A stretch of DNA of 64,000 bases from positions 1 to 64,000 of the IMG/VR virus record IMGVR_UViG_3300002520_000024, one strand, 5' to 3'. Position 1 is the first letter of the stretch. Every line of letters begins with the position of its first letter. Made by a program: the position numbers and the translations under genes. The notes beneath the pieces are model-generated. The model saw only the letters and a list, made by a program, of their open reading frames with translations, made no database searches and was not told the origin of the DNA. Of this stretch, positions 5,820-46,447 are shown piece by piece. This DNA is from a virus.

Positions 5820-6572
5820 ATGGCAACTGCAAACACCAGACGAAACGACGACGCAAACGAGGCAGACCTCTACATCACCCAACCGGAAGATGTGGCCTGC
5901 CTCTTTGTCATGCTTGAGAAGCACGGGATAAGCCTGCCACATGGGACAATCCGTGAGCCGTTTGCCGGTCGCGGCGATATTGCCAAGTACCTTGAGCGCC
6001 GCGGGTATACCGTGGTGAGTACAGATCTGAACGATTATGGCGATTGGGGTTACGGGAAAAGCGGGGAGGACTTCTTCAAGCAGGACTTCACCCAATGCGC
6101 CGCCATTGTAACCAACCCACCGTACTCTGAGATCAATGATGTGGTGCGCTACCTCGGCGACGAGATGCCAGAGCAGTCCATGGTTTGCATGCTGGTGCGC
6201 CAGCAGTTTCTGGAGAGCGCCGATCGCGTGTCGATCTTGCAGCAATACGGTGGCCTGAATTGGGTATTCCAGTACGCCTATCGCACCCTCTGCCCGCGGA
6301 TAGACCACACCACCGGTGAAGCCATCTACCATACTGAGAAGGTTGTTGGTGGCAAGACCAAGAAGACACCTGAGCCGCGAGCTGTGGCCTACTGCTGGGT
6401 GGTCTTCGATTACAGCTACACCGGCCCAGTAATGCTGGATTGGATCACCAAGGATGTGCAGGCTGCAGCCCGGGCCGAGATGGTCAAGTTGCCAATCCAC
6501 CCGGAGGATGCCAAGCGTGCCGATCAGCGGGTGGCAGCAAAAACTGGCGGGTTTAAAATCGGGGTGTTTTAA
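5820..6572 (+). CDS. DNA N6-adenine methyltransferase
   Basis: SAM-binding motif EPFAGRGDI and catalytic motif IV IVTNPPYSE. Confidence 0.8.
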   Translation: MATANTRRNDDANEADLYITQPEDVACLFVMLEKHGISLPHGTIREPFAGRGDIAKYLERRGYTVVSTDLNDYGDWGYGKSGEDFFKQDFTQCAAIVTNPPYSEINDVVRYLGDEMPEQSMVCMLVRQQFLESADRVSILQQYGGLNWVFQYAYRTLCPRIDHTTGEAIYHTEKVVGGKTKKTPEPRAVAYCWVVFDYSYTGPVMLDWITKDVQAAARAEMVKLPIHPEDAKRADQRVAAKTGGFKIGVF

Positions 6573-7613: not shown

Positions 7614-7752
7614 GCCTGTAGAAACTAGCAATTCCAGAGATCCGGGAGGGCGCCGTCGCGCCTCTCCTCGCCAGGCGGCAGGCAGGGGCGGGCGCCAGGC
7701 TGAGCGGGCGGTTGCGTTATGGGGCAGGCGGGGGACTGGTCTGATCTCACTA

Positions 7753-7768
7753 TGGCACGCGGCTTGCA
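7753..7768 (+). promoter_or_regulatory. sigma54-type -24/-12 element
   Basis: TGGCACGCGGCTTGCA is a full match to TGGCACG-N4-TTGCW. Confidence 0.45.
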
Positions 7769-7778
7769 TAACGGTGCT

Positions 7779-8070
7779 GCCAGGACGCCACAGGTAAGGC
7801 CCTGCCCTTGATGGCAGGCCGCGCCAGTAGCAGCAGGCGGGGCGCTGTTGGTTCGGTCAATGCCAAGGTGGCGGGGTAGGTTGGCGGTTCGCCACAGGGC
7901 CGCACAATCGCCAACAAGGCGGGGGCCAATGATGCTGTTTCGGGTTTGCGTGGTGTTGTTGCAGTGGATCGGGGTATCGTTGCGAATCCGGCCCCTACTG
8001 TTGCAGGATGGGGGCCTAGTGTCACGGCGGCCAGGCAATAGAAAAGGGGGCCACCAGCGGCCCCCTTTTT
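7779..8070 (+). ncRNA. candidate structured ncRNA (~290 nt)
   Basis: GC-rich stretch with no credible ORF, lying between the sigma54-like element and a strong terminator. Many local hairpins, e.g. GTGGCG...CGCCAC and GGCCCC...GGGGGCC. Confidence 0.3.
8042..8070. terminator. bidirectional rho-independent terminator
   Basis: AAAA-GGGGGCC-accagc-GGCCCCC-TTTTT. Confidence 0.75.
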
Positions 8071-8071
8071 G

Positions 8072-8197
8072 CTACATCAGGATCAAGATCTTCCAGTCAA
8101 CCGCCAGATACAGCAGGACGGCGACCACTATCAAAAAACCCTTGTAAATGACTTTCCATTGCTTTCTGTGATCATCCCATTTCTGGGGGCTACTCAT
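8072..8197 (-). CDS. small membrane protein (41 aa)
   Basis: ATG overlaps the upstream stop (TAATG). Sequence MSSPQKWDDHRKQWKVIYKGFLIVVAVLLYLAVDWKILILM has one TM segment. Below the ORF-track length cutoff. Confidence 0.4.
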   Translation of the reverse strand: MSSPQKWDDHRKQWKVIYKGFLIVVAVLLYLAVDWKILILM

Positions 8198-8508
8198 TAG
8201 CCCGCCACGATATGCCCAAGGCCATCAAACAGCCTGACCGATTGCTTGACCTCTTGCCCCATCAGGTAAACGCGCTCGCTTACCTCTACGCCGGATCCGG
8301 TCACAATCGCCACCATGGTGACAGTGACCCCGCTCGGCTTGGTGTTGTTGCAGGACAGACAGATCGGGCCGCCTTGCTCTTTCTGGTGCACCAGGATCGG
8401 CCCGTGCTGCTTGTGCGGTTGCAGGGCGTCCAGGATGGCAGGGGTAACAGACACCAGCCCGAACGGGCCGGAGATCTTGCGCTGGTTGCGTCTTTTTTTC
8501 GTGCTCAT
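8197..8508 (-). CDS. hypothetical protein
   Basis: 103-aa ORF. ATGA coupling to the upstream gene. Confidence 0.6.
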   Translation of the reverse strand: MSTKKRRNQRKISGPFGLVSVTPAILDALQPHKQHGPILVHQKEQGGPICLSCNNTKPSGVTVTMVAIVTGSGVEVSERVYLMGQEVKQSVRLFDGLGHIVAG

Positions 8509-8846
8509 GGTTTCACCGCCTTGATGTAGTAGGACAGGATCGCACCGTAGGCGGCCCGCTGGCCCTCCAGGTAGCGATCAAAGGATCCCCGCGCTCTGGT
8601 AGCCCAAGCCGCTTGATTGTGCAGCTCCAGGGCCAGGCGCGGGCATGCTTGCACACTCTCGCCCAGGTCAAACAAGCGGCGGGCCACGTCCAGCCGGACA
8701 GATACGGCCAGGGGTTGCCCTTTATGGTCACGGATAACCGACCCCCGCGCAATAGCAGCGGCGATCACCCCATCCCGATAGGTGGCGGCTTGGTGATTCT
8801 GGGACGTGAAGCGGCGGTACTGGCTCACAACTGATTCTAAGCTCAT
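8505..8846 (-). CDS. hypothetical protein
   Basis: 113-aa ORF. RBS GAGGG. Confidence 0.6.
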   Translation of the reverse strand: MSLESVVSQYRRFTSQNHQAATYRDGVIAAAIARGSVIRDHKGQPLAVSVRLDVARRLFDLGESVQACPRLALELHNQAAWATRARGSFDRYLEGQRAAYGAILSYYIKAVKP

Positions 8847-8856
8847 GGGCTGGCCC

Positions 8857-9207
8857 TCAATGGTGGCGGCTGGGGTTGAATCCGTGGGCGGCTTGGTGCA
8901 GGTATCCGCTGACCAGGATCTTGATCGGGGCGGTAAGGTTCGATCCCTCCAGGTTCAACAGTGAGCGGGCAGCCACCAGGGCAGCACGGCAGCGGCGGCC
9001 ACTACTGCGAGCCACGGCAGGCAGCAGGGCGGCCACTCTCCAGCAACCTCTAACACTGAGGCGGCGGGCTTGTGCCCAGCCTGCCCGCAATGTATCCGCC
9101 CAGGTGGCGAACAAGGGGCGGCCACCAGCGGCCACCACGGCGCGATCCTTCTTCCAGATCGCTTGTGCAATGCGCATTGCATCAGGGCCGTAATTGTGTT
9201 TTTTCAT
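8857..9207 (-). CDS. hypothetical protein
   Basis: Internal ATG 9207 (MKKHNYG) preceded by AAGGAAA. The longer ORF version would run through the promoter. Confidence 0.6.
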   Translation of the reverse strand: MKKHNYGPDAMRIAQAIWKKDRAVVAAGGRPLFATWADTLRAGWAQARRLSVRGCWRVAALLPAVARSSGRRCRAALVAARSLLNLEGSNLTAPIKILVSGYLHQAAHGFNPSRHH

Positions 9208-9258
9208 GGTCTGATTTCCTTTTCTGCTTGGCATTATTGCCGGGTTACTACCGGGTAA

Positions 9259-9301
9259 ATAGTAGGTGACAAGGAATAAAAAAACCGTGAGCAGGGTCAC
9301 G
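9259..9301 (-). promoter_or_regulatory. class-II-type promoter with CRP-like dyad
   Basis: Dyad CGTGAGCAGGGTCACG at 9286-9301. -10 TACTAT (minus strand) at 9259-9264, 29 nt from the dyad centre. Confidence 0.6.
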
Positions 9302-9325
9302 GTTTTGATTATTACTGTTTAGGTG

Positions 9326-9787
9326 CTATACGCCGCTTTTTTGCAGCATAGACCGCGCTTTAAGCAAGGCCGCAATAATTGCCTCCTGCTCTGCGATATA
9401 TTCCATTATCCAGCCATCAAGGGCGCGGCATGCTTCATCAGCAAAGGCCGTTATTGCAGCCTTGCCAGCGTCCTCTAATATGTAGCCATGGCAAGAGGCA
9501 GCAGCCCCCAGGCTAGAAACCTCGAACTTGTCGAAGTGCAACCCTTTAATTGAGGTTGTCGGAATAGATGATCCGGCGTCAATATACCAATCATCCTTTA
9601 GGCTTTGTTTCATCTTGTAGGGGTATTTGTTCAGGCTACCATAAATAGCCAAGCCCCCTTTCTCCGCGCTCACTGTTACCGTGGGGTGTCCGTGTGATAG
9701 TCTGACCCGTGCGGTAACAGTAACCAGGCTTTTGCCATTGTTCGCAGCGATAAAGTCAATCGCCTCTTGCTTGCGTGAATCACTCAT
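9326..9787 (-). CDS. hypothetical protein
   Basis: 153-aa ORF. Conserved leader CAAGGAAAGAGGG. Confidence 0.7.
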   Translation of the reverse strand: MSDSRKQEAIDFIAANNGKSLVTVTARVRLSHGHPTVTVSAEKGGLAIYGSLNKYPYKMKQSLKDDWYIDAGSSIPTTSIKGLHFDKFEVSSLGAAASCHGYILEDAGKAAITAFADEACRALDGWIMEYIAEQEAIIAALLKARSMLQKSGV

Positions 9788-9823
9788 TTAATAACCCTCT
9801 TTCCTTGCGCTGTTGATAGGGTA

Positions 9824-9866
9824 AATATAGCCAAGGTCCAAATAAAAAACCGTGAGCAGTGTCACG
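9824..9866 (-). promoter_or_regulatory. class-II-type promoter with CRP-like dyad
   Basis: Dyad CGTGAGCAGTGTCACG at 9851-9866. -10 TATATT at 9824-9829, 29 nt from the centre. Confidence 0.65.
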
Positions 9867-9887
9867 GTTTTAATAAAGGCTTTTTAT

Positions 9888-10148
9888 TTAGGAGATCTGT
9901 TGGACTGTTATTTTAACAGTGCGTGATCCGCCCCAGCGCCCGACTACGTTAGCCGAAAATTCGACACCATCAGCAACGGGGGCCATGTTGCTAATACTGT
10001 AATTTTTGCCAAAGTTGGTACGGATTGCGCTATTGGCGGCGGCCAGGTGATCCAGGGGCTCCCCCTTCTCTTTGACGCTGACGGAAGCAGATCCACGGGG
10101 CGCACCGGATGCGGACAGATTCACGATCTTGACTACAAATTTTTTCAT
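9888..10148 (-). CDS. hypothetical protein
   Basis: 86-aa ORF. RBS AAGGAAG. Confidence 0.65.
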   Translation of the reverse strand: MKKFVVKIVNLSASGAPRGSASVSVKEKGEPLDHLAAANSAIRTNFGKNYSISNMAPVADGVEFSANVVGRWGGSRTVKITVQQIS

Positions 10149-10163
10149 TTTGCGGACTTCCTT

Positions 10164-10328
10164 TTATTGGGTAATTACGGCCACCAGGGCGGCGGCTTTG
10201 ACGTTCAACCAGTGCCCCAAAATCGGGGCACTCTTCCAGATTATCAGACCATAGGCGGCAATCAGTCCCACTTTCTTTGATCCGGTGATCAGCTTGGCCG
10301 CCTTGGTTGCCTTTTCATCTACAAACAC
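10164..10328 (-). CDS. possible small membrane protein (54 aa, GTG start)
   Basis: AGGTGG lies 5 nt before the GTG. Hydrophobic segment GLIAAYGLIIW...AAALVAVI. Fills the gap between two genes. Confidence 0.3.
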   Translation of the reverse strand: MFVDEKATKAAKLITGSKKVGLIAAYGLIIWKSAPILGHWLNVKAAALVAVITQ

Positions 10329-10338
10329 GGCTGCCACC

Positions 10339-11241
10339 TTAGAAAGTAAATGCCCAGTCTTTGGCCTTGGCGAACTTCTCCAGCTCTGCCCGCATATCCG
10401 CCACCAGGGCGGGGACGCGCTCGATCAACCCGTCTACGTCTTGCAGTTGTTCAAGGGTTGCATCAGGCCAGGCGGCACAACTACGGGCAGCGTCAAGATC
10501 CGGCGCCTTGCCCTTGCTGTAGTCGCTGGGGATCTTGGCAACCACTACCCCCCAGCGTTTAGCAGCGGCGGCGAACTCCCGCGCCTTGCTTTCTGAGTTA
10601 AAGGGCGCTTTGTGCCAGTCATACGGCGGCAAGGGATAGCCCTCGAAAGTGTAGCGGGTATAATCTCGCCCTTCTGATTTATGGGTTACCGGAACAACGG
10701 CCAGGCTAGGCCACTGATCAACAGGCTTATCATGCCAGGTCAAGACCCAGGCGCGAAAGCCATCAGATTCAGCGGACATTGTGATCGGGCAATCGTCAAA
10801 CACGAAGAAATGATCCCAGCTTGACGGCTCGCCAGCGCGGCGGCCCCAGCAATCCCGATCACCAGCGTGATAGATGGCATTGCCTACGGCGTGAGAGAAG
10901 ATAGAGCCCAAGCCGATAAGGTGGAACCGGATCAGCGGCGTAACCTCTGGGAACACTTTCATCAGAATTTCATGGATACAGCCACAAGTATCAGGATCGC
11001 TTTCCTTCATCATCTTGCCAGCAAGCCAGGCGCTACCCGTAATCCCCATTGAGTTATAGCCGTTTTTACAGTGGTCGTCCCAGCGGATAGTACAATCAAC
11101 GCGGCGGAAGGTTTCGCCTTTTACTTTAAAATGGCCGTCCTTGCGCAGAGTCAGGCTTTGGCTATTGGTGCGGGTGGACATAGCCAAAATATCAGCCTTG
11201 ATTTGATCAGCGCGGGCTTGCTGCTCTTGGGTAAATGCCAT
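10339..11241 (-). CDS. hypothetical protein (300 aa)
   Basis: Long ORF. Leader CAAGGAAAGAG. Confidence 0.75.
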   Translation of the reverse strand: MAFTQEQQARADQIKADILAMSTRTNSQSLTLRKDGHFKVKGETFRRVDCTIRWDDHCKNGYNSMGITGSAWLAGKMMKESDPDTCGCIHEILMKVFPEVTPLIRFHLIGLGSIFSHAVGNAIYHAGDRDCWGRRAGEPSSWDHFFVFDDCPITMSAESDGFRAWVLTWHDKPVDQWPSLAVVPVTHKSEGRDYTRYTFEGYPLPPYDWHKAPFNSESKAREFAAAAKRWGVVVAKIPSDYSKGKAPDLDAARSCAAWPDATLEQLQDVDGLIERVPALVADMRAELEKFAKAKDWAFTF

Positions 11242-11289
11242 GATATCTCTTTCCTTGTGTTAGCTGGGGCGGCTGCCCCAGTGGTTTAA

Positions 11290-11331
11290 ATATTACTCGA
11301 ACCAGGATTAAAAACAGTGATCAATGTCTCA
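11290..11331 (-). promoter_or_regulatory. class-II-type promoter with CRP-like dyad
   Basis: Dyad AGTGATCAATGTCTCA at 11316-11331. -10 TAATAT at 11290-11295, 28 nt from the centre. Confidence 0.55.
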
Positions 11332-11712
11332 CTCTTTGACTCTGGCTGTTACATAGATTTCTACAGTCTCAGGCAAATTATCAGCGCGGCCCTTGCGAAA
11401 GTTGTTAGCGTCATACTGAAAAGTAAATTCCAGGTCTTCGGCTGCCACTGGTGCATATTTACCAGATCCCAACTTCTGGACAAATAAACCCTTGTAATCC
11501 TCCAGTGGATAGCAGCGGCGTTTAATAAGGCTTTCACTGGGCACACCTTCCAGATAATAGGATCCATCGCCTGTGCCAAAATTGCTCGGGAAAATACCAT
11601 CTTGATCCCGTGCAAGGTATTCAAGGCTTACAGGTTCACCGACCAGTAACCGCCCCTCCCCTTCTATTGCCTGAAAAACCGCGTAAACTATTGCGCCTTT
11701 GTAAAGTTCCAT
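11329..11712 (-). CDS. hypothetical protein
   Basis: 127-aa ORF. Leader ACGGAAAGAGGG. Confidence 0.7.
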   Translation of the reverse strand: MELYKGAIVYAVFQAIEGEGRLLVGEPVSLEYLARDQDGIFPSNFGTGDGSYYLEGVPSESLIKRRCYPLEDYKGLFVQKLGSGKYAPVAAEDLEFTFQYDANNFRKGRADNLPETVEIYVTARVKE

Positions 11713-11750
11713 TGCTTGACCCTCTTTCCGTGTGGTGTATTGATACTTGC

Positions 11751-11792
11751 AGTATAGCGACCACTATTTAAATAACAGTGATCGCCGTCACA
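11751..11792 (-). promoter_or_regulatory. class-II-type promoter with CRP-like dyad
   Basis: Dyad AGTGATCGCCGTCACA at 11777-11792. -10 TATACT at 11751-11756, 28 nt from the centre. Confidence 0.6.
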
Positions 11793-11794
11793 AA

Positions 11795-12373
11795 TTAAAT
11801 AATCAGATCATGCTTGGTGCAGAAAGCCAAAATATCGGGGTTTTCGTGCAGGTATGCGCGGATCTGTTTGTAATAGTCGCCCTTCTTATATTGCGGGCTT
11901 TCTTCGGTTACAGCGAAATCACAGTATATCAGGTAAAGCAGGCTTGATATAACTTTCGGGTGCATATCATCAAAGCACTCGACAGATTCGCGGACTTGAT
12001 CCCACAGCTCCAGGGCAACGGCTTGCCGATCTGCCCCGACCATGACCGGATCCCATGGGGTATAATGGGCACGGTCGCCACAGGCGCCAGGCAGGCGGCT
12101 TGTGTTGAATTGCTGGACGGCGTGATCCGGTGCATAGTCGCACACATTAACCAGGATAGGCCTTGCCCCTTTTGCGTACAGCTCGCGGCCCAGGTGTTGC
12201 CCAATCACGCTGATAGCTTCAACGTGAGCCCCAAGGCCCGCCGCCTTGTCTTCTGCCCAGGCGGACGCTTGCCCAAGGCTATAGGCCAAGGCAATATAAA
12301 CCTCTGCCCGCCCGTTGCTATCGTGGCGGTGGACGGTCTTGTAATACTGGGGGATCTGGTATTCGGTTTTCAT
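11795..12373 (-). CDS. hypothetical protein
   Basis: ATG 12373 (MKTEYQ) preceded by CAAGGAAAGAGGG. Confidence 0.7.
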   Translation of the reverse strand: MKTEYQIPQYYKTVHRHDSNGRAEVYIALAYSLGQASAWAEDKAAGLGAHVEAISVIGQHLGRELYAKGARPILVNVCDYAPDHAVQQFNTSRLPGACGDRAHYTPWDPVMVGADRQAVALELWDQVRESVECFDDMHPKVISSLLYLIYCDFAVTEESPQYKKGDYYKQIRAYLHENPDILAFCTKHDLII

Positions 12374-12394
12374 GGTGTTGCCCTCTTTCCTTGC

Positions 12395-12423
12395 GGCGGC
12401 CCCGCCGGATATCGGGGGGCCTA
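12395..12423 (-). repeat. 29-nt GC-rich hairpin at the 5' end of a transcript (copy 1)
   Basis: GGCGGCCCCGCCGGATATCGGGGGGCCTA is identical to 14178-14206. It starts a few nt after the predicted TSS. Confidence 0.6.
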
Positions 12424-12432
12424 CTGGTGTTG

Positions 12433-12475
12433 ATACTGGCACAAGCCAGGGAATAAAACAGTGATCACTGTCTCA
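12433..12475 (-). promoter_or_regulatory. class-II-type promoter with CRP-like dyad
   Basis: Dyad AGTGATCACTGTCTCA at 12460-12475. -10 CAGTAT at 12433-12438, 29 nt from the centre. Confidence 0.5.
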
Positions 12476-12718
12476 CTTTTCAGCCTTGAAGTGATTCAGC
12501 GCGGATTCGAGCAGATCGGCCGCCTCCTGCTCTGTGCACACCAAGCGGTGATCCCATGCAAGGTGCAACAGGTCGGTGATCAGATCTTTGGTAGCATCGA
12601 TCTGGTCTTGGCGCGGCATGCTATCGGGCCAGCCCTTGGGGTTGCGCTTGGCATAGTGCATTTTCAAGGCTTCACGTGCCGCACGGGCGCGGGCTTGATT
12701 CTCGGTTTCGGTTGTCAT
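12473..12718 (-). CDS. hypothetical protein
   Basis: 81-aa ORF. Leader CAAGGAAAGAGG. Confidence 0.65.
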   Translation of the reverse strand: MTTETENQARARAAREALKMHYAKRNPKGWPDSMPRQDQIDATKDLITDLLHLAWDHRLVCTEQEAADLLESALNHFKAEK

Positions 12719-12752
12719 GTGGTGCCTCTTTCCTTGTGTTGTTGACGGGTTA

Positions 12753-12795
12753 AATGTAGCCCACGCCGTAGAAAATAACCGTGACGCCGGTCACA
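12753..12795 (-). promoter_or_regulatory. class-II-type promoter with CRP-like dyad
   Basis: Dyad CGTGACGCCGGTCACA at 12780-12795. -10 TACATT at 12753-12758, 29 nt from the centre. Confidence 0.65.
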
Positions 12796-13114
12796 TATTC
12801 AAAAGGTCGATTGCTTGTTTTTTCAGGTCAAGGCGGTGGCTGTGGCATACCCGCCCGATCTGCTTAATAGCCAACAGCTGGGCGGGGCAGCGTACCCCCA
12901 GGCACAAGGCCAGCAGAGCGGGGGAGCGCCACCATAAACGGGGGGCGGCCCCGTAGACCATAGACCCCCAGCGATCGCCTATCGGGTCGAAAACAATCGC
13001 ATTGCAGCCAAGGGGGGAAACCTGCCCGCTACTGTCAATAGACAGGTAACCCAGGGCAGGCCCCCCGCTTGGGGTGATATCGGGGATCACCATTGGCCCC
13101 CGCTTGGCTACCAT
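12791..13114 (-). CDS. hypothetical protein
   Basis: 107-aa ORF. Start uncertain: ATG 13114 or ATG 13093. Confidence 0.5.
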   Translation of the reverse strand: MVAKRGPMVIPDITPSGGPALGYLSIDSSGQVSPLGCNAIVFDPIGDRWGSMVYGAAPRLWWRSPALLALCLGVRCPAQLLAIKQIGRVCHSHRLDLKKQAIDLLNM

Positions 13115-13410
13115 CCCGTGTGCATGCCGTAAGCTGCCCAGGATGGCAGGCTATCCGGTAATGTGGCATTCTCCAGCCATTGGATCATGGCGGCCTTGGT
13201 GCGCTGCTCCCGTGGGATATTGCGGGGGGTTCGCCAGTAGGGGTAATCTTCATCCTGTCGCCAGTCGCCTGATTTTGGGGCAGCGACTACCATAAATTCG
13301 GCGCTGGCCTGTGATACGCTAAAATCAATGTCATCGTACTTTTCCCAAAGGCCGGACGTGTCCACGTCTTTGATCTGCTCTAATGCCTTCTCAAAATCAA
13401 CACAGCACAA
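13108..13410 (-). CDS. hypothetical protein
   Basis: 100-aa ORF with a TTG start. Overlaps the upstream gene. Confidence 0.5.
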   Translation of the reverse strand: MCCVDFEKALEQIKDVDTSGLWEKYDDIDFSVSQASAEFMVVAAPKSGDWRQDEDYPYWRTPRNIPREQRTKAAMIQWLENATLPDSLPSWAAYGMHTGW

Positions 13411-13903
13411 AAGGCGCCCGCCAGGCAGAGAAGGGGATAACCACTAACCCGATCAGGTACTCCAGCGGCGGGGCGCCGTTAAAGCAGATTGCGCCGTTTT
13501 GATCAGACCCATCATATGATTCGTCATACTCCCAGCCGCCGGATTCATCACCGATTATCTCGGATGGCACGTCAAAAATTAATACTACCTTGTGGCAGTC
13601 GCTCATAGAGTAGGCCGCCGCGATATCAGCGGATCCGAAAGCCTGCTTGATTGTATGGGCTAGGCTTTCGGCTCGCTGCTCTTCGGGGAGGTCATCTAGA
13701 TCCGCGTCCTCCTCTTCCCAGTCTGACGTATCAATGTGCCCGAACCGGATCAGCTCTTCTTCGCTCCAGGCGTAGAAATAACCATCATTATCGGGGCAGA
13801 GCCAGGGCGAGCCGCTGATCACGCTGCGCTTGTCTGCATCAGCCTTGGCGCTTGCGATGATAGCGGGGATCAGTTTGCTGGTGGTGCCATGAGTCAAGAT
13901 CAT
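13397..13903 (-). CDS. hypothetical acidic protein
   Basis: 168-aa ORF. Leader CAAGGAAAGAGAAA. Acidic run DWEEEDADLDDLPEE. Confidence 0.7.
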   Translation of the reverse strand: MILTHGTTSKLIPAIIASAKADADKRSVISGSPWLCPDNDGYFYAWSEEELIRFGHIDTSDWEEEDADLDDLPEEQRAESLAHTIKQAFGSADIAAAYSMSDCHKVVLIFDVPSEIIGDESGGWEYDESYDGSDQNGAICFNGAPPLEYLIGLVVIPFSAWRAPFVLC

Positions 13904-13930
13904 TTTCTCTTTCCTTGTGATCGTGGGTGA

Positions 13931-14161
13931 TTAGGGTTGTTCGGTGTGGGTTTTGCTTTCGGTGATCAGCATACCGATCACCCCAACCAGCAGGCAGAAG
14001 ATCGCTGTCGCGCCAGTCAGCGCCGCTTCCCCTGTGGTGATAAGCCCGAGATTGTTACCAAAGATAACCATCAGGGCAGCCACAGAGCCAACGGCAGCAC
14101 ATACGGCGCAAAATACAAACAGGGCATTGGTTGCGGGGTGGTTGTTGTTCGGCTTTTCCAT
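13931..14161 (-). CDS. small membrane protein (2 TM)
   Basis: ATG 14161 preceded by GGAGAA. Hydrophobic segments FVFCAVCAAVGSVAALMVIF and ATAIFCLLVGVIGMLI. Confidence 0.6.
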   Translation of the reverse strand: MEKPNNNHPATNALFVFCAVCAAVGSVAALMVIFGNNLGLITTGEAALTGATAIFCLLVGVIGMLITESKTHTEQP

Positions 14162-14177
14162 CTGTCTATTCTCCATT

Positions 14178-14206
14178 GGCGGCCCCGCCGGATATCGGGG
14201 GGCCTA
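14178..14206 (-). repeat. 29-nt GC-rich hairpin at the 5' end of a transcript (copy 2)
   Basis: Identical to 12395-12423. Confidence 0.6.
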
Positions 14207-14218
14207 GTTGATGGGGTA

Positions 14219-14261
14219 ACTATCGCACAGGTTTTACAGGTTGTCCGTGACAGCGATTACA
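14219..14261 (-). promoter_or_regulatory. class-II-type promoter with CRP-like dyad (inside the 3' end of the upstream gene)
   Basis: Dyad CGTGACAGCGATTACA at 14246-14261. -10 GATAGT at 14219-14224, 29 nt from the centre. Confidence 0.5.
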
Positions 14262-14884
14262 GAACTGTTTGGAGTGTTGACAGAGATTACCCCCCAGGTA
14301 TTGAGGCAACCAGCATCAGCCAGGGCCTTAGAGAAGGCGGCGGGGGTAAACAGTCTAGCCCGCCCGTTAGGCCCCTCTGTAGCCTCAATCTCTGCCAGGG
14401 CGTAGGAACTGGGGAAATTGACAGTCACACAGACTAGGCCATAAGGGCGGATAATCCGGCGGTCACTAGCCACCAAGAGATCGGATCCGCAATCGCTGAT
14501 ATCGTAGAGGTTTTCTAACAGCCGATTGAAGATGTCCTGTTTGCATTCTGCAAAGCAGAACCAGCAATCGATCGGCTTGCTACGGGCGCCAAGCTCCCGA
14601 TCCGCATAGACGGCCATCACTCCAACCTGACGGGCCATTGTGTAATATGTTTCTGCCAGCAATTCCAGGCAGTGGGCGGGCAGGTGCGCCAGCGGAAAGC
14701 CCTTTTCACCCTCAACCAGGGCGGAGATCTCCATGCCGTCCAGCTGGTTTTTCTTGATAGCGTCGAGGTTACGGTAAGCCAGGGCTTTGATGCGCTCGAT
14801 CATCAAAATGTGATCTTGCAGCTGGTCGATCGGCATGTTAGCCAGAATGTTAAAATGCGCTTGAGTATCTTTGATTTCGATCAT
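14234..14884 (-). CDS. hypothetical protein
   Basis: 216-aa ORF. Leader CAAGGAAAGAGG. Confidence 0.7.
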   Translation of the reverse strand: MIEIKDTQAHFNILANMPIDQLQDHILMIERIKALAYRNLDAIKKNQLDGMEISALVEGEKGFPLAHLPAHCLELLAETYYTMARQVGVMAVYADRELGARSKPIDCWFCFAECKQDIFNRLLENLYDISDCGSDLLVASDRRIIRPYGLVCVTVNFPSSYALAEIEATEGPNGRARLFTPAAFSKALADAGCLNTWGVISVNTPNSSVIAVTDNL

Positions 14885-14954
14885 GATAGTCGCCTCTTTC
14901 CTTGTGTTGAATCCCCGCCCAGTAGCGGGGGAGTTGTCTTATTCGTCTTCGCTT

Positions 14955-15458
14955 TTAGCTGTGGCGGGGGTACGCATCATTGAGAAAACCGATCATTGCC
15001 TCTTCGGCCTCCTCGTTATTCAGATCCATAGCGTCCAGCTCTTCCGGCGTATAGATGGCAATGGCGTAGCCCTGTTTTCTGATCTCACGGCTAAGGGCGA
15101 TCAGCGCATCGTACAAGGTAGGGTGATCATCAGCGCCACTTTCTGGGGCCTCATTGCTGGGGCAGTCGTCAGCAGGGCACTTGTCCAGGTATTCACCGGA
15201 GAAGACACGACCACACTGATCACAGTGGCAACCGTCAAAGCGGATCCAGCCCTTGGCGGTGATCTCTTTCAAAGCAGAAGTGAAACCGTTCACCCGCCAA
15301 AACTTGTTAACCTGCATCACCCCATCAGCATCAACCAGGGCCAGCGCCAGGGCTACGGGCTTTTCGCCCGCTTCGGTTTTTGGCGTGACGTGGCCCAGGT
15401 ATGCAACCTTCCCGTTTTTGATAAATCCGGTTTGCTCATTCTTAGGCTTGATGATCAT
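14955..15458 (-). CDS. hypothetical protein with Cys-rich ribbon
   Basis: ATG 15458 (MIIKPK) preceded by CAAGGAAAGAGAAA. CHCDQC...CPADDC motif. Confidence 0.7.
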   Translation of the reverse strand: MIIKPKNEQTGFIKNGKVAYLGHVTPKTEAGEKPVALALALVDADGVMQVNKFWRVNGFTSALKEITAKGWIRFDGCHCDQCGRVFSGEYLDKCPADDCPSNEAPESGADDHPTLYDALIALSREIRKQGYAIAIYTPEELDAMDLNNEEAEEAMIGFLNDAYPRHS

Positions 15459-15507
15459 TTTCTCTTTCCTTGGGTTAGGGGCTCGCCTCATTGCGGGCCA
15501 TGGTTAG

Positions 15508-15549
15508 ATAATAGCGGGGTCACAGAATAAAACAGCGACCCCGATCACA
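15508..15549 (-). promoter_or_regulatory. class-II-type promoter with CRP-like dyad
   Basis: Dyad AGCGACCCCGATCACA at 15534-15549. -10 TATTAT at 15508-15513, 28 nt from the centre. Confidence 0.6.
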
Positions 15550-15552
15550 CTT

Positions 15553-15912
15553 TTAAATATTCGCCAGGGCTTGGGCTAATGCCTTGCGCTGGTAGTCCGG
15601 CACAGCGGCGACAGCCTCCCCCATCGCATCAAGGAAATCATCAGGCAGGCCGTAGCCTGTTTCTGTCTTGTGCAGATAGGCCCAGGATCGGCAGAGCACA
15701 GAGCCAAAGTGATCCAGCACGTCCCGAACCAGGGCGGGGCGGGTGTGTTTATGCTCACTGGCAAAACCCAGCTCGCCCAGGTGTTGGAGCATAGCCCCCG
15801 CCGTTTGGTACTGGTAGGATTCGACAATATCCAGGTCAGCCGTCAGGCTCTCCAAAACCGAGCCCTCTACAACCTCGATCACCCAGTCGTAAACAATGCG
15901 CTTGGCCATCAT
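15553..15912 (-). CDS. hypothetical protein
   Basis: ATG 15912 overlaps the upstream stop (ATGA). Confidence 0.6.
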   Translation of the reverse strand: MMAKRIVYDWVIEVVEGSVLESLTADLDIVESYQYQTAGAMLQHLGELGFASEHKHTRPALVRDVLDHFGSVLCRSWAYLHKTETGYGLPDDFLDAMGEAVAAVPDYQRKALAQALANI

Positions 15913-16310
15913 TCGCCCCCTTGAGCCCGATAGTGATCCCCCAGGGTTTGAAGCATAGCGCGGGCGCCTGCTTTCCACTCCTCGCACTCTTGCTCATAGG
16001 GCACAGCCTCAACCTTGAAATAAACCTCTGCCCCCCTGTGGTTGTAGAGCGACACTAAATCAGCCGCTTCCTGTGCACCATAGCGGCGGGCTTTCATTGG
16101 CACGGGGTCGAAAGTGGTAGTGCCCCGCAACTTGACAAGGTAGCCGGATCGGTAGGCTTGCCCGACTGCATCGCTTGAGGTGTCAGGGTTCGCTATTACG
16201 CGGATCAAGTAACCGCGATCACCCTCGCCTAGCTCTTGATAGTGGTGCAGGGTAACGGCGGCTTGCAGGTTTTGCATGAGATCCGCCAAATACAGATCAA
16301 AGGCTTTCAT
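15909..16310 (-). CDS. hypothetical protein
   Basis: 133-aa ORF. Leader CAAGGAAAGAGAAG. First gene of the leftward cluster. Confidence 0.7.
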   Translation of the reverse strand: MKAFDLYLADLMQNLQAAVTLHHYQELGEGDRGYLIRVIANPDTSSDAVGQAYRSGYLVKLRGTTTFDPVPMKARRYGAQEAADLVSLYNHRGAEVYFKVEAVPYEQECEEWKAGARAMLQTLGDHYRAQGGE

Positions 16311-16341
16311 CTTCTCTTTCCTTGTTGGTTACTGTTGGGCC

Positions 16342-16384
16342 ACTATAGCGGCCATCTTTTAAAAAAACCGTGCTGGTTGTCACA
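16342..16384 (-). promoter_or_regulatory. class-II-type promoter with CRP-like dyad
   Basis: Dyad CGTGCTGGTTGTCACA at 16369-16384. -10 TATAGT at 16342-16347, 29 nt from the centre. Confidence 0.65.
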
Positions 16385-16395
16385 CTTTTCGATAA

Positions 16396-16440
16396 AGGCC
16401 TTTTTTTCAGAAAAAGAGCTGGTTTTTTCCACAAAAAAAA
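16396..16440. repeat. right copy of the ~45-bp imperfect direct repeat flanking the early cluster
   Basis: AGGCC-T7-CAG-A5-GAGCTGGTTTTTTCCACAAAAAAAA aligns with 7567-7613. Confidence 0.5.
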
Positions 16441-16581
16441 TTGCATGGCGGATCTAGGGATTCTCTCCTCTCCTCCCCCTCCCCCCATCCCCTGGCGCCC
16501 CCTCCCTGGCGTGGATTCGGGGGACTACCCAAGACAGGGGGCCAGCATCACCAGGATCGGCGAACTGGTCGGATCTCTGTT

Positions 16582-17368
16582 TGGCATGGCGCTTGCATGG
16601 GTCGGGGGGCGACAGGCAAGAGCTGTGCCAAGTTCGCGCCATGCAAAAGGAAAGGCGAGCCAGAAAATCGGTATGCAAAGCCCGTGCCAAAATGGCGGGC
16701 TACCCCTCGCAGAAAAAACGGGGGCATGCAAGAGACGTGCCAACATAGGCGGATCCCTCCCTAGACATTTTAGGGACACAAACCCAAGCAAGGGCCGTGC
16801 CAGTTTTTTACTTTTCTTGCCAGGTAGCCAAAAAAACCGCCAGCCCAGCAAAAAGCGTGCCAAGACGCAACGCCGAAAAAAGGGCGAGCATCCACAGCAA
16901 ATAACATGCCAAGATCACCATGATCCGGCCTCCATTAGATCGGTTTCCTAGTGCCGATAACCCTAGCCCAATGGCAAGAAAAAACCAGTGATCGGCGTCA
17001 CATTTTCACCCTGTAAAGGCTAAAAACTTTTGCCGTCAAAAACCGTGCCAACAATGCACCGTTTTTGTGATTCACGTCAAATACTTAACACACAAGGAAA
17101 AACGGGGGCCGTACCATGCAAAAACGGGGCCAGATCACCCCCTATAGAGCAGGATCTCCAACGTATGCAAACCCCGTGCCAACCCATGCCGAAAATCGGG
17201 GCCGACTGGCCGATCATAGTAGTGCATCTAGTAAGAGATCTGATCCCTTTGCGGTAGCAAATTACGTGCCACAAATAAAACTTTCCTCCTCCAGATCGCT
17301 TGTCCCGTGCGCCGCTTCCTTGCACCATGAAAATAATAACGCGCCTTCTCCATGCAAGGCCCGTGCCA
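16582..17368. repeat. tandem array of sigma54 -24/-12 consensus-like elements (iteron-like)
   Basis: Eleven minus-strand copies start at 16615, 16674, 16727, 16787, 16847, 16896, 17035, 17117, 17166, 17256 and 17353 (16 nt each). One plus-strand copy lies at 16582-16597. No credible ORF in the region. Confidence 0.7.
16960..17002 (-). promoter_or_regulatory. possible class-II-type promoter inside the repeat array
   Basis: Dyad AGTGATCGGCGTCACA at 16987-17002. Weak -10 TAGGGT at 16960-16965, 29 nt from the centre. Confidence 0.4.
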
Positions 17369-17399
17369 CGTCACGGATTTTCTACGCCGTGAAAAACTT

Positions 17400-17461
17400 T
17401 GTGACGCCGCTCACACTTTTTTACTTTGTCGCCTTGCGCCTTCTTTTTTCTTGCCTATAGT
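17400..17461 (+). promoter_or_regulatory. sigma70-like promoter with upstream CRP-like dyad (class-I-like position)
   Basis: Dyad TGTGACGCCGCTCACA at 17400-17415. TTGCGC (17434-17439), 16-nt spacer, TATAGT (17456-17461). Dyad centre is at about -60. Confidence 0.45.
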
Positions 17462-17511
17462 CAAAGGGCACTAAGGCGAACCCGCCACAACCACGAAAAG
17501 GAAATCTGACC

Positions 17512-17772
17512 ATGAAAGCAAAAGAAGTTATCCAGACCTTGGGCCGCCAAACCCGCAACGCCGCTTTTGTCGAGTGCCTGCCCGTGTCCCTTCTTTTTGG
17601 TGACACCTCCACCACTTATCTCGGTGGCGAGGCCGTACCGCCCAGCGCCAAATATCCGACCCGCGCACAATTCAAAATCCGTGCCAAGGTTGCGGCGCTG
17701 GTCGGTTGCTCCACGGGCGACTTTGAGGCCATCGATCGCCACCTCAACAACGCCGCCAGTTACCGCGCATAA
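17512..17772 (+). CDS. hypothetical protein
   Basis: 86-aa ORF. RBS AAAGGAAA. Confidence 0.55.
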   Translation: MKAKEVIQTLGRQTRNAAFVECLPVSLLFGDTSTTYLGGEAVPPSAKYPTRAQFKIRAKVAALVGCSTGDFEAIDRHLNNAASYRA

Positions 17773-17789
17773 GCAAAGGATGTGCCAAA

Positions 17790-17999
17790 ATGAAAAGCCT
17801 TGTTCAAGCCGTAGATCTGGGGACGGCTCCCCGTATGTTTGATCTCTACATTGGGCTGATCCGTGTCGGGTATGTCGGGCAGGTTGGCGAGTGCCGTTGG
17901 CGGGGCTGGTTCAACGGGCACGGGCAGATCGTGGGCGATACCCTTTTGCAAGTTTTGGGCCAAGCCGAAACCATCGCCCAAGAGGGGGACAAGGCATGA
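17790..17999 (+). CDS. hypothetical protein
   Basis: 69-aa ORF. Confidence 0.5.
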   Translation: MKSLVQAVDLGTAPRMFDLYIGLIRVGYVGQVGECRWRGWFNGHGQIVGDTLLQVLGQAETIAQEGDKA

Positions 18000-18112
18000 T
18001 CGACAGTCTGGTTTTTCTGGCCCTCTTTGTGGGGTCGGTGATCGGGGCCGCTGTGACGGGCGGCCTAGTTCCGGCTCTGGTTGTGCTCGTGCTTTTCTCC
18101 ATCGCCGCCTAG
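17996..18112 (+). CDS. small membrane protein (38 aa)
   Basis: ATGA overlap with the upstream stop. Sequence MIDSLVFLALFVGSVIGAAVTGGLVPALVVLVLFSIAA. Confidence 0.4.
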   Translation: MIDSLVFLALFVGSVIGAAVTGGLVPALVVLVLFSIAA

Positions 18113-18340
18113 CAAAACCCGTGCCATCTTTTTATGCGCCGATCTGACTAGATCGCGCTATTCAATAGTTGAGAGGGGGCCTTTATGGTTATGGCGCAAC
18201 GGGGGGCCGATCGCTGTAATCGCGTCCTGCGCGTTTTGGCGAGGGCCGTTTTTGCCGATCGGGCCGTTTTTGGCCTGGCAACCTGGCACGGTTTTTGATC
18301 ACTGCTTATCCATTCATTTGGTTGCATAGACAAAAAACTA

Positions 18341-18401
18341 TGTGATCAACGTCACATTTTCTTTCTTTTCCCCGCGCAAGTTTTCGGGGCTTGGCTATAC
18401 T
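18341..18401 (+). promoter_or_regulatory. promoter with perfect CRP-type dyad upstream
   Basis: Dyad TGTGATCAACGTCACA at 18341-18356. -10 TATACT at 18396-18401. Dyad centre is at about -60. Confidence 0.4.
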
Positions 18402-18455
18402 TATCACATCAGGTAGGGAATGACTCCCCGCCGCACGTGAGAAGGAATGCCAGCC

Positions 18456-18680
18456 ATGAAAACCGTTCACACTATCTTGTCAGGCCTGCTAAACCCGTCA
18501 GTCTGCGAACTGGAGGAGGCCGCCTATCAGGTCGGTCGTTTCGAGCAGTCCGCTATTATGGATCCCGAGCTGGAGCGCCTGATCAGTGAGACTTATCCCG
18601 ACAGCGATCTGATCTGGTCTCGTTGCTATGACGCGCACCAGCAGGGCCGCGCTGACCAAGACGCCCAAGAAGCCGCCTAA
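18456..18680 (+). CDS. hypothetical protein
   Basis: ATG 18456 lies 9 nt after GAAGGA. Confidence 0.55.
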   Translation: MKTVHTILSGLLNPSVCELEEAAYQVGRFEQSAIMDPELERLISETYPDSDLIWSRCYDAHQQGRADQDAQEAA

Positions 18681-18721
18681 TCCGAATCAAAAACCGTACC
18701 AACTTTTAAGGAATCGATATC

Positions 18722-19483
18722 ATGAAAATGCCCGCCCTTGTCGAACTGAAAACCGCTGCCCCGTCCTTTGACCGTTGCGCCGAGATTGCAAGAGTCGTGC
18801 CACTTCAAGAAGGTTGCGAGCTGGTGATCACCGACACCATGATCCGCCTGATTGCCCAGAATGGGGCCGAGTTCACATTCTATCGGGGCGACTGTGCCCG
18901 CGCTGTGACTGAGGGCATGTTTACTTGCCTGATGGCTCTTCGTGCCGCGCCTGCTCCCCACTATGTCGAGATGGGGCGCAAGGGCGACAAGGTGAACACT
19001 CACAAGGTGATCGGCATTGACCACCGTCCGATCCTCCAGACTGAGGATGACTGCGAACTGTGCGACCCCGAGCAGGCGAACCTGTTTAGTGTCTATGTCG
19101 TGCTCGCCGTTGATGGCTGGGAACTTTCCTACCACTACGCCGATCACCAGACCCTTGACGCGGCAAAAGAGCAGGCCGATCTGTTGGCACAGGTTTTGAA
19201 TGTGGTTCACACCTACACCACCGAGAGCGAGGGGGAGCAAGTCCAGAGCGAGCCGGACGCTGACGGATTCGGGGCCGAGCATGATCGCGCCGTAGTCGAG
19301 GCCCTGATGCACATTGCCGAACACGGGGCGCAGGATCTGTCTATCCTGTCTCACGTGCTGGAGTACGATCTCACGTCTGCCGAGTGCAGCCTGATCGGGC
19401 GGTTCCGCCGTGGTGCCAACGTAGACGGGGATCACGCTGCCCTTGCCGCACTGGCCCAAGCCATCCAGAATGGCGAACGGTAA
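18722..19483 (+). CDS. hypothetical acidic protein
   Basis: 253-aa ORF. RBS AAGGAA. The antisense ORF 18677..19501 looks non-protein-like. Confidence 0.65.
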   Translation: MKMPALVELKTAAPSFDRCAEIARVVPLQEGCELVITDTMIRLIAQNGAEFTFYRGDCARAVTEGMFTCLMALRAAPAPHYVEMGRKGDKVNTHKVIGIDHRPILQTEDDCELCDPEQANLFSVYVVLAVDGWELSYHYADHQTLDAAKEQADLLAQVLNVVHTYTTESEGEQVQSEPDADGFGAEHDRAVVEALMHIAEHGAQDLSILSHVLEYDLTSAECSLIGRFRRGANVDGDHAALAALAQAIQNGER

Positions 19484-19504
19484 AAGCAAACCCCATGCCA
19501 ACTT

Positions 19505-19527
19505 GCCCGCCCTGTGCGGGCTTTTTT
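19505..19527 (+). terminator. rho-independent terminator
   Basis: GCCCGC-cctgt-GCGGGC followed by T6. Confidence 0.7.
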
Positions 19528-19654
19528 ACGTCCGGATTTTTCGGGGCTACCCTGGCCCGTTGGCATGATACTTGCTAGGCGCAATCACAGAAGAGTTGGC
19601 ATGCTTTTTGCGGGCCTACCCCCTCTCTCACAGATCTATGACAAAAGTTTTTTT

Positions 19655-19815
19655 GGGCGTGCGGGCGACGACGAAAAAATTATGGAAAATATTTTTAGGG
19701 GGCGTTGGGGTGTGTGAGGCGTGAAAAGATGTGGGGCGTGATGGCGTGGGGCGTGAAAAAACTATGGTCGTGACGGGGGCTCTGGGCGTGATAAATATTT
19801 TTGTGGCGGGCGTGG
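19655..19815. repeat. cluster of direct GGCGTGA-type repeats flanked by AT-rich tracts
   Basis: At least 8 copies of G(G)CGTG(A/G) in about 160 bp, e.g. GAGGCGTGAAAAG, GGGGCGTGATGG, GGGGCGTGAAAAA, GGTCGTGACGG and GGGCGTGATAAA. AT-rich tracts at 19671-19697 and 19791-19804. Confidence 0.5.
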
Positions 19816-19861
19816 GGCGGCGAGGGTCGATAAAAAGAGAGGCCAAACGAAAAACTGGTAA

Positions 19862-46377: not shown

Positions 46378-46447
46378 ACTATACCAGCAGGCTTGCGCAA
46401 TTACTGTGAGGTGGCGCACAGTAATAACCCGCTGGCTTTGGTACTCT
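46378..46447. promoter_or_regulatory. bidirectional promoter sharing one CRP-like dyad
   Basis: Dyad TGTGAGGTGGCGCACA at 46405-46420. Minus-strand -10 TATAGT at 46378-46383 and plus-strand -10 TACTCT at 46442-46447, each 29 nt from the centre. Confidence 0.6.

Follow-up and report, generated by a model that had tools for sequence, protein, structure and literature searches.

A dense array of consensus-type sigma-54 sites in the early control region of a phage, with similar arrays in unrelated viral contigs

Host sigma-54 sites in phages are already known, and by analogy the nearest precedent is YuA, a virulent Pseudomonas siphophage that has no RNA polymerase of its own and uses -24/-12 elements of the host sigma-54 (RpoN). 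The locus described here lies in positions 1 to 64,000 of the IMG/VR virus record IMGVR_UViG_3300002520_000024 (this whole stretch of 64,000 nucleotides is called the window), where about twenty near-perfect sigma-54 sites are packed in about 3 kb of early control region, with eleven minus-strand sites in one intergenic gap; it is this dense arrangement that is probably new. Activity of the YuA promoters is reportedly lost in an rpoN mutant. In the part of its genome for virion and lysis functions, the YuA record marks three active promoter fragments that carry the -24/-12 consensus (at 38.4, 40.9 and 47.2 kb); these were active in a promoter-trap assay, and a transcriptome study found a sigma-54-like promoter again (PMC10914365). 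An initial annotation of the window had pointed to sigma-54 promoters in YuA, which is right in kind, though there they are three single, dispersed late-region promoters kilobases apart, as opposed to some twenty near-perfect sites within 3 kb of early control region. None of the YuA fragments matches the strict pattern used below, TGGCAYR-N4-TTGC, or a looser version of it.

Three other kinds of system invite comparison. The A1, A2 and A3 promoters of T7 and the promoters of ribosomal RNA genes are sets of two or three tandem sigma-70 promoters, about 90-125 bp apart and activator-free. In a textbook comparison they resemble the array as stacked, co-directional host-polymerase promoters upstream of an early operon, whereas the array has eleven or more enhancer-dependent sites, some of them antisense or convergent. 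Titration by decoy sites is reported to have been demonstrated as a principle with synthetic repeats in yeast (PMC3322331). Like such decoys, the window array would offer many clustered high-affinity sites for one scarce factor with no obvious single target gene; unlike a pure decoy it has an orientation bias, and our literature searches found no natural phage decoy array for a sigma factor. Iterons, too, are short repeated sites in a non-coding region between divergent early operons, but in them the whole 17-22 bp unit is conserved, with an AT-rich unwinding element and an initiator gene adjacent, whereas the array conserves only the sigma-54 positions. A phage protein with faint structural similarity to sigma-54 has also been reported (PMC7693777). 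Full-text searches, in a library that leaves out most subscription journals, found no description of sigma-54 site arrays in phages, and dense arrays of host sigma-54 sites in a phage are probably new.

The core of the array occupies the gap between a leftward early operon and a group of small rightward genes. All twelve sites that the initial annotation had placed in this gap were found at the same positions and on the same strands, and others lie to either side:

16582..16597, plus strand: the gap's one plus-strand copy, with the sigma-54 consensus (TGGCATGGCGCTTGCA)
16615..16911, minus strand: sub-array of six sites (16615, 16674, 16727, 16787, 16847, 16896), spaced 49-60 bp, toward the leftward early operon
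17035..17368, minus strand: five more sites (17035, a TTGA variant; 17117, a TGGCCC variant; 17166; 17256; 17353), spaced 49-97 bp
17772..17787, minus strand: sigma-54 site at the 17-nucleotide spacer right after the stop of plus-strand gene 17512-17772, antisense to the rightward genes
17947..17962, minus strand: weaker site TGGCCCAAAACTTGCA, within plus-strand gene 17790-17999
18111..18126, minus strand: perfect site that overlaps the stop of a hydrophobic open reading frame (ORF) on the plus strand, which ends at 18112
18284..18299, plus strand: variant site TGGCACGGTTTTTGAT, whose first 15 nucleotides (18284-18298) are identical to the minus-strand site 17035-17050 (arm 17036-17050)
18787..18802, minus strand: perfect site, within plus-strand gene 18722-19483
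19485..19500, minus strand: site right after the stop of gene 18722-19483 and just before an intrinsic terminator (19505-19527)
19561..19612, plus strand: two sites (19561 and 19597), toward a non-coding stretch with iteron-like repeats
7753..7768, plus strand: isolated perfect site TGGCACGCGGCTTGCA, about 160 nucleotides upstream of the small plus-strand ORF 7929-8147

The initial annotation had the core right; sites continue at 17772-19597 and at 7753, so the array is larger than it had described. The rightward extension of the cluster, the CRP-like promoters on both flanking operons and a small ORF within the array, both treated below, had also escaped it. The site at 7753..7768 looks like an ordinary single sigma-54 promoter. 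A 38-nucleotide element, ACTGGTCnGATCTCnnnnTGGCAyGnnGCTTGCA, is found on the plus strand at 7731-7768 and at 16560-16597; each copy ends in a plus-strand sigma-54 site, and the two form a direct repeat that brackets the whole leftward early block (8197-16310).

A chance origin of the array is excluded. The pattern TGGC-N7-TTGC matches 25 times in the window compared to 5.3 expected, and none of 100 shuffles gave more than 12 matches; a comparison with shuffled sequence had been proposed by the initial annotation. The strict pattern, TGGCAYR-N4-TTGC, matches 18 times compared to 0.38 expected (maximum 3 in 300 first-order Markov simulations), and 16 of the 18 fall within the 3.2 kb from 16.5 to 19.7 kb. 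The GG and GC dinucleotides lie one helical turn apart within TGGCAC-N5-TTGC, as in the core of a sigma-54 promoter. The eleven minus-strand sites of the gap had all been put down as consensus copies; this holds for nine, which match the strict pattern, and the other two depart from the core, site 17035-17050 by having GA for GC at -12 and site 17117-17132 by reading TGGCCC.

Between copies, only the sigma-54 determinant positions are shared. Mean pairwise identity comes to 0.29 both in the 15 nucleotides upstream and in the 15 nucleotides downstream, and to 0.31 in the N4 spacer, in line with the initial claim that nothing else is conserved, and the distances between successive minus-strand sites (59, 53, 60, 60, 49, 139, 82, 49, 90 and 97 bp) span the 49-139 bp range reported there. 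Tandem Repeats Finder detects no tandem repeat in the array, and an ordinary tandem repeat or a clustered regularly interspaced short palindromic repeat (CRISPR) locus was rejected on the irregular spacing of 49-139 bp and the lack of a conserved whole unit. The sites are also strongly oriented: the minus strand carries 11 of the 12 in the gap (p=0.006) and 16 of the 20 overall (p=0.012), co-directional with the adjacent leftward early operon.

That the array is only a by-product, be it of decayed local duplications, of a cluster of small-peptide or small-RNA genes, or of a compositional accident, is close to refuted. The gap had been described as about 1.1 kb with no credible ORF. It measures 1201 bp (16311-17511), and it does contain one credible small ORF, which overlaps two of the sites:

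16808..16921, minus strand: 37-codon hydrophobic ORF MVILACYLLWMLALFSALRLGTLFAGLAVFLATWQEK with a GGAGG ribosome-binding site, holding sites 16847 and 16896 in different frames

By eye only, several GC-rich stretches followed by T-runs downstream of sites also look like degenerate copies. Against these two points, the motif is preserved although identity in the flanks is no better than random, the two sites within the ORF are read in different frames, two other candidate ORFs lack coding-type GC content by codon position, spacings of 49-60 bp are too short for RNA genes, scans found no Rfam family and no transfer RNA, and the strict pattern would be expected 0.38 times by chance. The T-runs were ruled out as terminators, bar one weak hairpin that coincides with site 17117. 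A second hydrophobic ORF, on the plus strand, is the one ending at 18112, with a stop codon that overlaps a sigma-54 site.

The identity of the factor that reads the motif can be approached through positions lying outside any search pattern. The extended sigma-54 consensus, mrNrYTGGCACG-N4-TTGCW, is said to go back to Barrios et al. 1999. At the pattern-free positions, 16 window sites have T at -27 in 69%, R at -30 in 81% and W at -11 in 88% of cases, with R at -28 in only 50%; for 639 unique viral sites among the matches listed from the scan described below, the figures are M at -31 in 66%, R at -30 in 76%, R at -28 in 68%, Y at -27 in 83% and W at -11 in 93%. These positions follow the extended RpoN consensus both in the window and in the viral sites. 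The sites are very likely genuine high-affinity binding sites for the host sigma-54 RNA polymerase holoenzyme, with host sigma-54 as the very likely reader of the motif. Since the same motif occurs in phages that share no proteins, a conserved host factor is a more plausible reader than a phage protein.

To see how widely such arrays occur, 2.9 million viral contigs were scanned for three tandem sites 40-70 bp apart. At least 119 stretches in several lineages were found, with GC content from 0.35 to 0.64; prevalence and spacing statistics drawn from this minimum count are biased, also by the required 40-70 bp, and one clade dominates them. Conservation limited to the motif (flank identity below 0.5) characterizes 88 among the at least 119 matches listed, and 68 of these 88 have at least five sites. 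Grouping the listed matches by shared proteins gives one large group, four small groups and 13 ungrouped loci; 69 loci of the large group have a large terminase in common, and among the matches listed no protein is shared between the window and the other array loci at E<1e-8. For three other array-bearing lineages, a search for cultured relatives by terminase gave none above 41% identity. The initial annotation had held an array of RpoN -24/-12 elements to be unusual for a phage, a view strengthened by the match to the extended consensus and by the motif-only arrays in these unrelated contigs.

The largest clade is an uncultivated one marked by its terminase (L005, L006, L010, L029, L121 and relatives). 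The small terminase gene (terS) there invariably has the array some 220 bp upstream of it, between divergent operons, and in an alignment of eleven relatives with 84% mean column identity the motif positions are invariant and the spacers variable. The sites form conserved convergent pairs, TGGCAC..TTGC-N7-GCAA..GTGCCA, and terS has its own invariant TTGACT-17-TATACT promoter. Across the viral arrays listed, start-to-start spacings peak at 25-28, 43-47 and 56-57 bp, and most arrays sit in divergent gaps. Where arrays point in one direction they are followed by co-oriented ORFs in 22 cases compared to 10, a mildly informative ratio among the matches listed, the gene calls in the fetched loci being crude. 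Arrays are frequently found at contig ends among the viral matches listed. A special case is L048, a viral contig of 11.9 kb in which the array at one end points into the genome and all genes lie on that strand. Its ends are inverted terminal repeats, perfect over at least 420 bp (1-420 and 11478-11897), so that a mirror array stands at the opposite end, and each terminal repeat contains five or six inward-pointing sigma-54 sites in units of roughly 50 bp. L048 may be a linear genome of small size that has a sigma-54 array at each end.

Some of these features could favour a phage-encoded DNA-binding protein, such as an initiator, a ParB-like protein or a small terminase, with an RpoN-like bipartite motif: the position of the array relative to the small terminase gene throughout the largest uncultivated clade, and the frequent location at contig ends. 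We nevertheless regard this explanation as improbable, because the five flanking positions of the extended consensus are matched as well, lineages with no proteins in common, ranging in GC content from 0.35 to 0.64, have the identical motif, packaging genes lie 40 kb away in the window, and a separate iteron-like repeat exists at 19655-19830. The initial annotation had offered iterons of an origin, a partition site or a packaging site as one hypothesis. These are disfavoured for the array by the flank and spacer identity of 0.29-0.31 with only sigma-54 positions conserved, by the lack of a protein family shared with the other array-bearing contigs listed, by the distance of about 40 kb to the packaging genes and by the better iteron candidate at 19655-19830; an origin or iteron role is unlikely.

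A different picture emerges for cellular genomes. The identical three-site scan applied to 596 Gb of bacterial and archaeal genomes gave 35 stretches, most of which are regular tandem or CRISPR-like repeats with flank identity of 0.7-1.0 and fixed periods. All matches in Actinomycetota and Cyanobacteria are whole-unit repeats; these groups are not known to have sigma-54. A few stretches are motif-only, from groups in which sigma-54 is presumably common. For instance, a metagenome-assembled Methylococcaceae contig (L138, 5267-5484, minus strand) has six sigma-54 sites that stand strictly 40-41 bp apart and are separated by unrelated sequence, which suggests close-packed binding on one helix face. 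Motif-only arrays therefore recur in viruses and almost never in bacterial genomes. It is possible, though we would not bet on it, that sigma-54 arrays constitute a distinct, virus-specific class of DNA element for capturing host holoenzyme.

As to function, the reading we put first, tentatively and at somewhat under even chances, is that the sites are a bank of enhancer-type promoters feeding the leftward early operon and running antisense across the rightward module. In its favour are the orientation bias toward the early operon, the co-oriented ORFs that more often than not follow one-directional arrays elsewhere, the array of L048 that points into its genes, and the precedent of YuA for phage use of host sigma-54. 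The steps that we infer for the promoter bank, from binding and firing to the activator and the direction of effect, would be as follows. Holoenzyme would dock as closed complexes at up to eleven sites in the gap and at the sites further right; an ATP-dependent activator would then act, sending transcription leftward into the early operon (from 16310 to 8197), and the right-hand sites would give antisense transcription across the rightward module. The activator might be a host enhancer-binding protein acting from solution, or an unrecognised phage factor. A closed complex has a footprint of roughly -34 to -5, and a spacing of 49-60 bp would let most sites of the sub-array be filled at once. 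Among bacterial sigma factors, sigma-54 is the one that can sit stably on promoters without firing, and its abundance is low, roughly a hundred molecules per E. coli cell. Such scarcity means that so large an array would tie up much of the sigma-54 in the cell, so that titration would be at least a side effect; given that abundance in E. coli, a few phage genomes would bind most of it.

Promoter elements of another type surround the array. The palindrome TGTGA-N6-TCACA, allowing at most one mismatch, occurs 18 times in the window compared to 1.8 expected, nearly always between genes. Most copies are followed after about 21 nucleotides by a -10-like TAnnnT. The palindrome is then centred at about -41.5, as in class II CRP-type activation. 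Two copies have a spacing of 39-40 nucleotides to the -10 (centre at -61.5), which is class I-like. A CRP-like palindrome with a -10 is probably the ordinary promoter type of this phage. Its use would suit a host that has a regulator of the CRP family, perhaps a gammaproteobacterium. One copy, at 46405, works for both directions. The elements found are:

11777, 12780, 16369, 16987, 17066, 17400, 18341, 20943, 23351: CRP/Vfr-type palindromes (pattern scan)
24718, 27129, 29783, 31750, 34238, 38267, 46405, 60805, 61451: CRP/Vfr-type palindromes, continued (pattern scan)
16369..16384, minus strand: candidate leftward promoter (PL) of the leftward operon, CRP-like half-palindrome TGTGA-N6-GCACG, 21 nucleotides, then TATAGT at 16342-16347
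16987..17002, minus strand: candidate promoter of the 37-codon ORF, CRP-like palindrome within the array, 21 nucleotides, then TAGGGT at 16960-16965
17066..17081, plus strand: one-mismatch CRP-like palindrome, located between sites 17035 and 17117
17400..17415, plus strand: candidate rightward promoter (PR) of the rightward genes (start 17512), perfect palindrome TGTGACGCCGCTCACA, 40 nucleotides, then TATAGT at 17456-17461

Several observations speak against a bank of promoters. Both flanking operons have a candidate CRP-like promoter of their own (at -41.5 or -61.5, plus a -10), so the array would not be needed to express them and its sites are not general promoters of the phage. At least five sites beyond the gap are antisense to plus-strand genes, and the sites occupy whatever non-coding space is available, for instance right after stop codons, even antisense to real genes. 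In other viral arrays convergent pairs lie 7 bp apart, or the spacings are 18-28 bp or strictly 40-41 bp; convergent pairs and tight or periodic spacings would fit binding arrays better than independent promoters. We know of no precedent for eleven or more stacked promoters. Nor did a search for the machinery help: a sigma-54 activator domain was found in none of the 28 window proteins put to Pfam (including all 18 gene calls of at least 250 amino acids), a GAFTGA-type loop in no ORF of at least 70 amino acids in the window or in the listed viral loci (at least 119), and an array-specific enhancer site was not seen in the repeat analysis. The only enriched palindrome is the CRP-like one, which is used throughout the phage at -41.5 of -10 elements.

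Most of these same observations could be accommodated if the closed complexes formed on the array were stable and rarely or never fired, so that sigma-54 is withdrawn from the host regulon or polymerase is held in reserve. We consider this doubtful in itself, though it stands close behind the promoter bank and is compatible with it; both readings had been among the hypotheses of the initial annotation. The targets would include flagella, pili, phage-shock, RNA-repair and nitrogen genes, and the capacity would grow as the phage replicates. In its favour, the sites are near-perfect consensus copies, unlike the working promoters of YuA; no activator gene or array-specific enhancer was found; the flanking operons here, like terS in the terminase clade, have their own promoters; non-coding gaps are filled irrespective of the direction of neighbouring genes; convergent pairs and tight or strictly periodic spacings occur in other viral arrays; and about twenty sites per genome would be many relative to the abundance of sigma-54. 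However, withdrawal alone would leave the strong bias of the sites toward the early operon unexplained, the core polymerase in the holoenzyme is also needed by the phage, a benefit to the phage of losing the sigma-54 regulon is without direct evidence, and where arrays have spacings of 18-28 bp, holoenzyme could not occupy every site. Capture could have two outcomes. The sigma-54 regulon would be silenced, with motility, pilus receptors, and envelope-stress and RNA-repair responses affected, or idle polymerase would be parked on phage DNA and freed by a phage factor other than a classical AAA+ activator.

Three of the right-hand minus-strand sites (17772, 18111 and 19485) lie directly after the stop codons of plus-strand genes, the array stands between two divergent promoters, and two plus-strand sites point at the iteron-like, AT-rich stretch 19655-19830. 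These placements would suit an architectural role, in which closed complexes serve as roadblocks or insulators, both between the divergent operons and where rightward genes end, or activate a nearby origin. We give this little credence, as no case is known of sigma-54 closed complexes in such a role, site 19485 is already followed by a normal intrinsic terminator and eleven sites far exceed what an insulator needs.

Whether the promoter-bank reading or that of withheld sigma-54 applies, a phage with twenty consensus sites would either run its early programme through sigma-54 or take this factor from the host. Either outcome, if true, would be a new route of viral takeover of host transcription and would explain a sequence feature that recurs in uncultivated phages of several lineages, and stable docking without firing, if it proves right, could make the array an element of a new kind. 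Being short and easily synthesised, the array is directly testable and might serve as a tool for titrating sigma-54.

In a crude map, the surrounding genes form these blocks:

up to about 8.1 kb, plus strand: plus-strand genes (crude gene map)
16310 down to 8197, minus strand: leftward early operon, first gene 15909-16310 (crude gene map)
16311-17511: intergenic gap of 1201 bp with the array core, between leftward and rightward genes
17512-19483, plus strand: small rightward genes (four or five), all with AAGGA-type ribosome-binding sites (repeat analysis)
about 19.9 to 29.6 kb, minus strand: leftward genes (crude gene map)
about 29.6 kb to the window end, plus strand: rightward genes (crude gene map)

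Family searches identified a family A DNA polymerase, an exonuclease, a Holliday junction resolvase, a DNA methyltransferase and a thymidylate kinase, together with a portal protein and a Mu F-like head protein, and the window is therefore part of a large tailed phage. The portal and Mu F-like head morphogenesis genes lie about 40 kb from the array, and no terminase was identified in the window. Family searches found no known function for the early genes that flank the array, and three flanking proteins, compared by sequence with solved structures, had no match. The nearest cultured relatives (about 45% identity for the polymerase and about 31% for the portal) are Vibrio SIO-2/VHS1-like and Stenotrophomonas DLP_5-like siphophages.

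The DNA search in related phages that the initial annotation had suggested gave no diverged copy of the array. A comparison of the array and the first 25 kb with cultured phages by DNA similarity yielded only a 165-bp match to Aeromonas phage LAh_7, elsewhere in the window, and an exact search for the array in viral contigs gave no match. Searches through neighbouring proteins in viral contigs, metagenome contigs and the protein database returned the same phage only, in identical copies, with no diverged relative. The distant cultured relatives found through DNA polymerase and portal, which are Vibrio phage KarBoss and Stenotrophomonas phage DLP_5, have zero sites, so the array is specific to the lineage of the window phage and not a compositional effect. 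The sole other copies found are on JGI contigs from samples 3300002513 and 3300002517, which have the same array with zero substitutions; both contigs covering the phage terminate at a G-rich tract on the minus strand (16462..16545) between the array and PL. Long G-runs (C-runs on the opposite strand) adjoin arrays both here and in the unrelated viral contigs L005, L006, L037 and L115.

GATC occurs 11-14 times per kb between 8000 and 20000, two to three times more densely than the 4-7 per kb elsewhere in the window, in coding sequence too, and a DNA methyltransferase homologue is located at 5820-6572. GATC clustering was dropped as an origin mark in the array because the enrichment spans the whole 8-20 kb region, coding parts included. 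A candidate replication origin lies to the right of the array, at 19655-19830, where five or six copies of an iteron-like repeat, GGGCGTGA, are spaced about 32-35 bp apart with AT-rich sequence on either side, in a 400-bp non-coding region downstream of the strong terminator at 19505-19527 and of two plus-strand sigma-54 sites.

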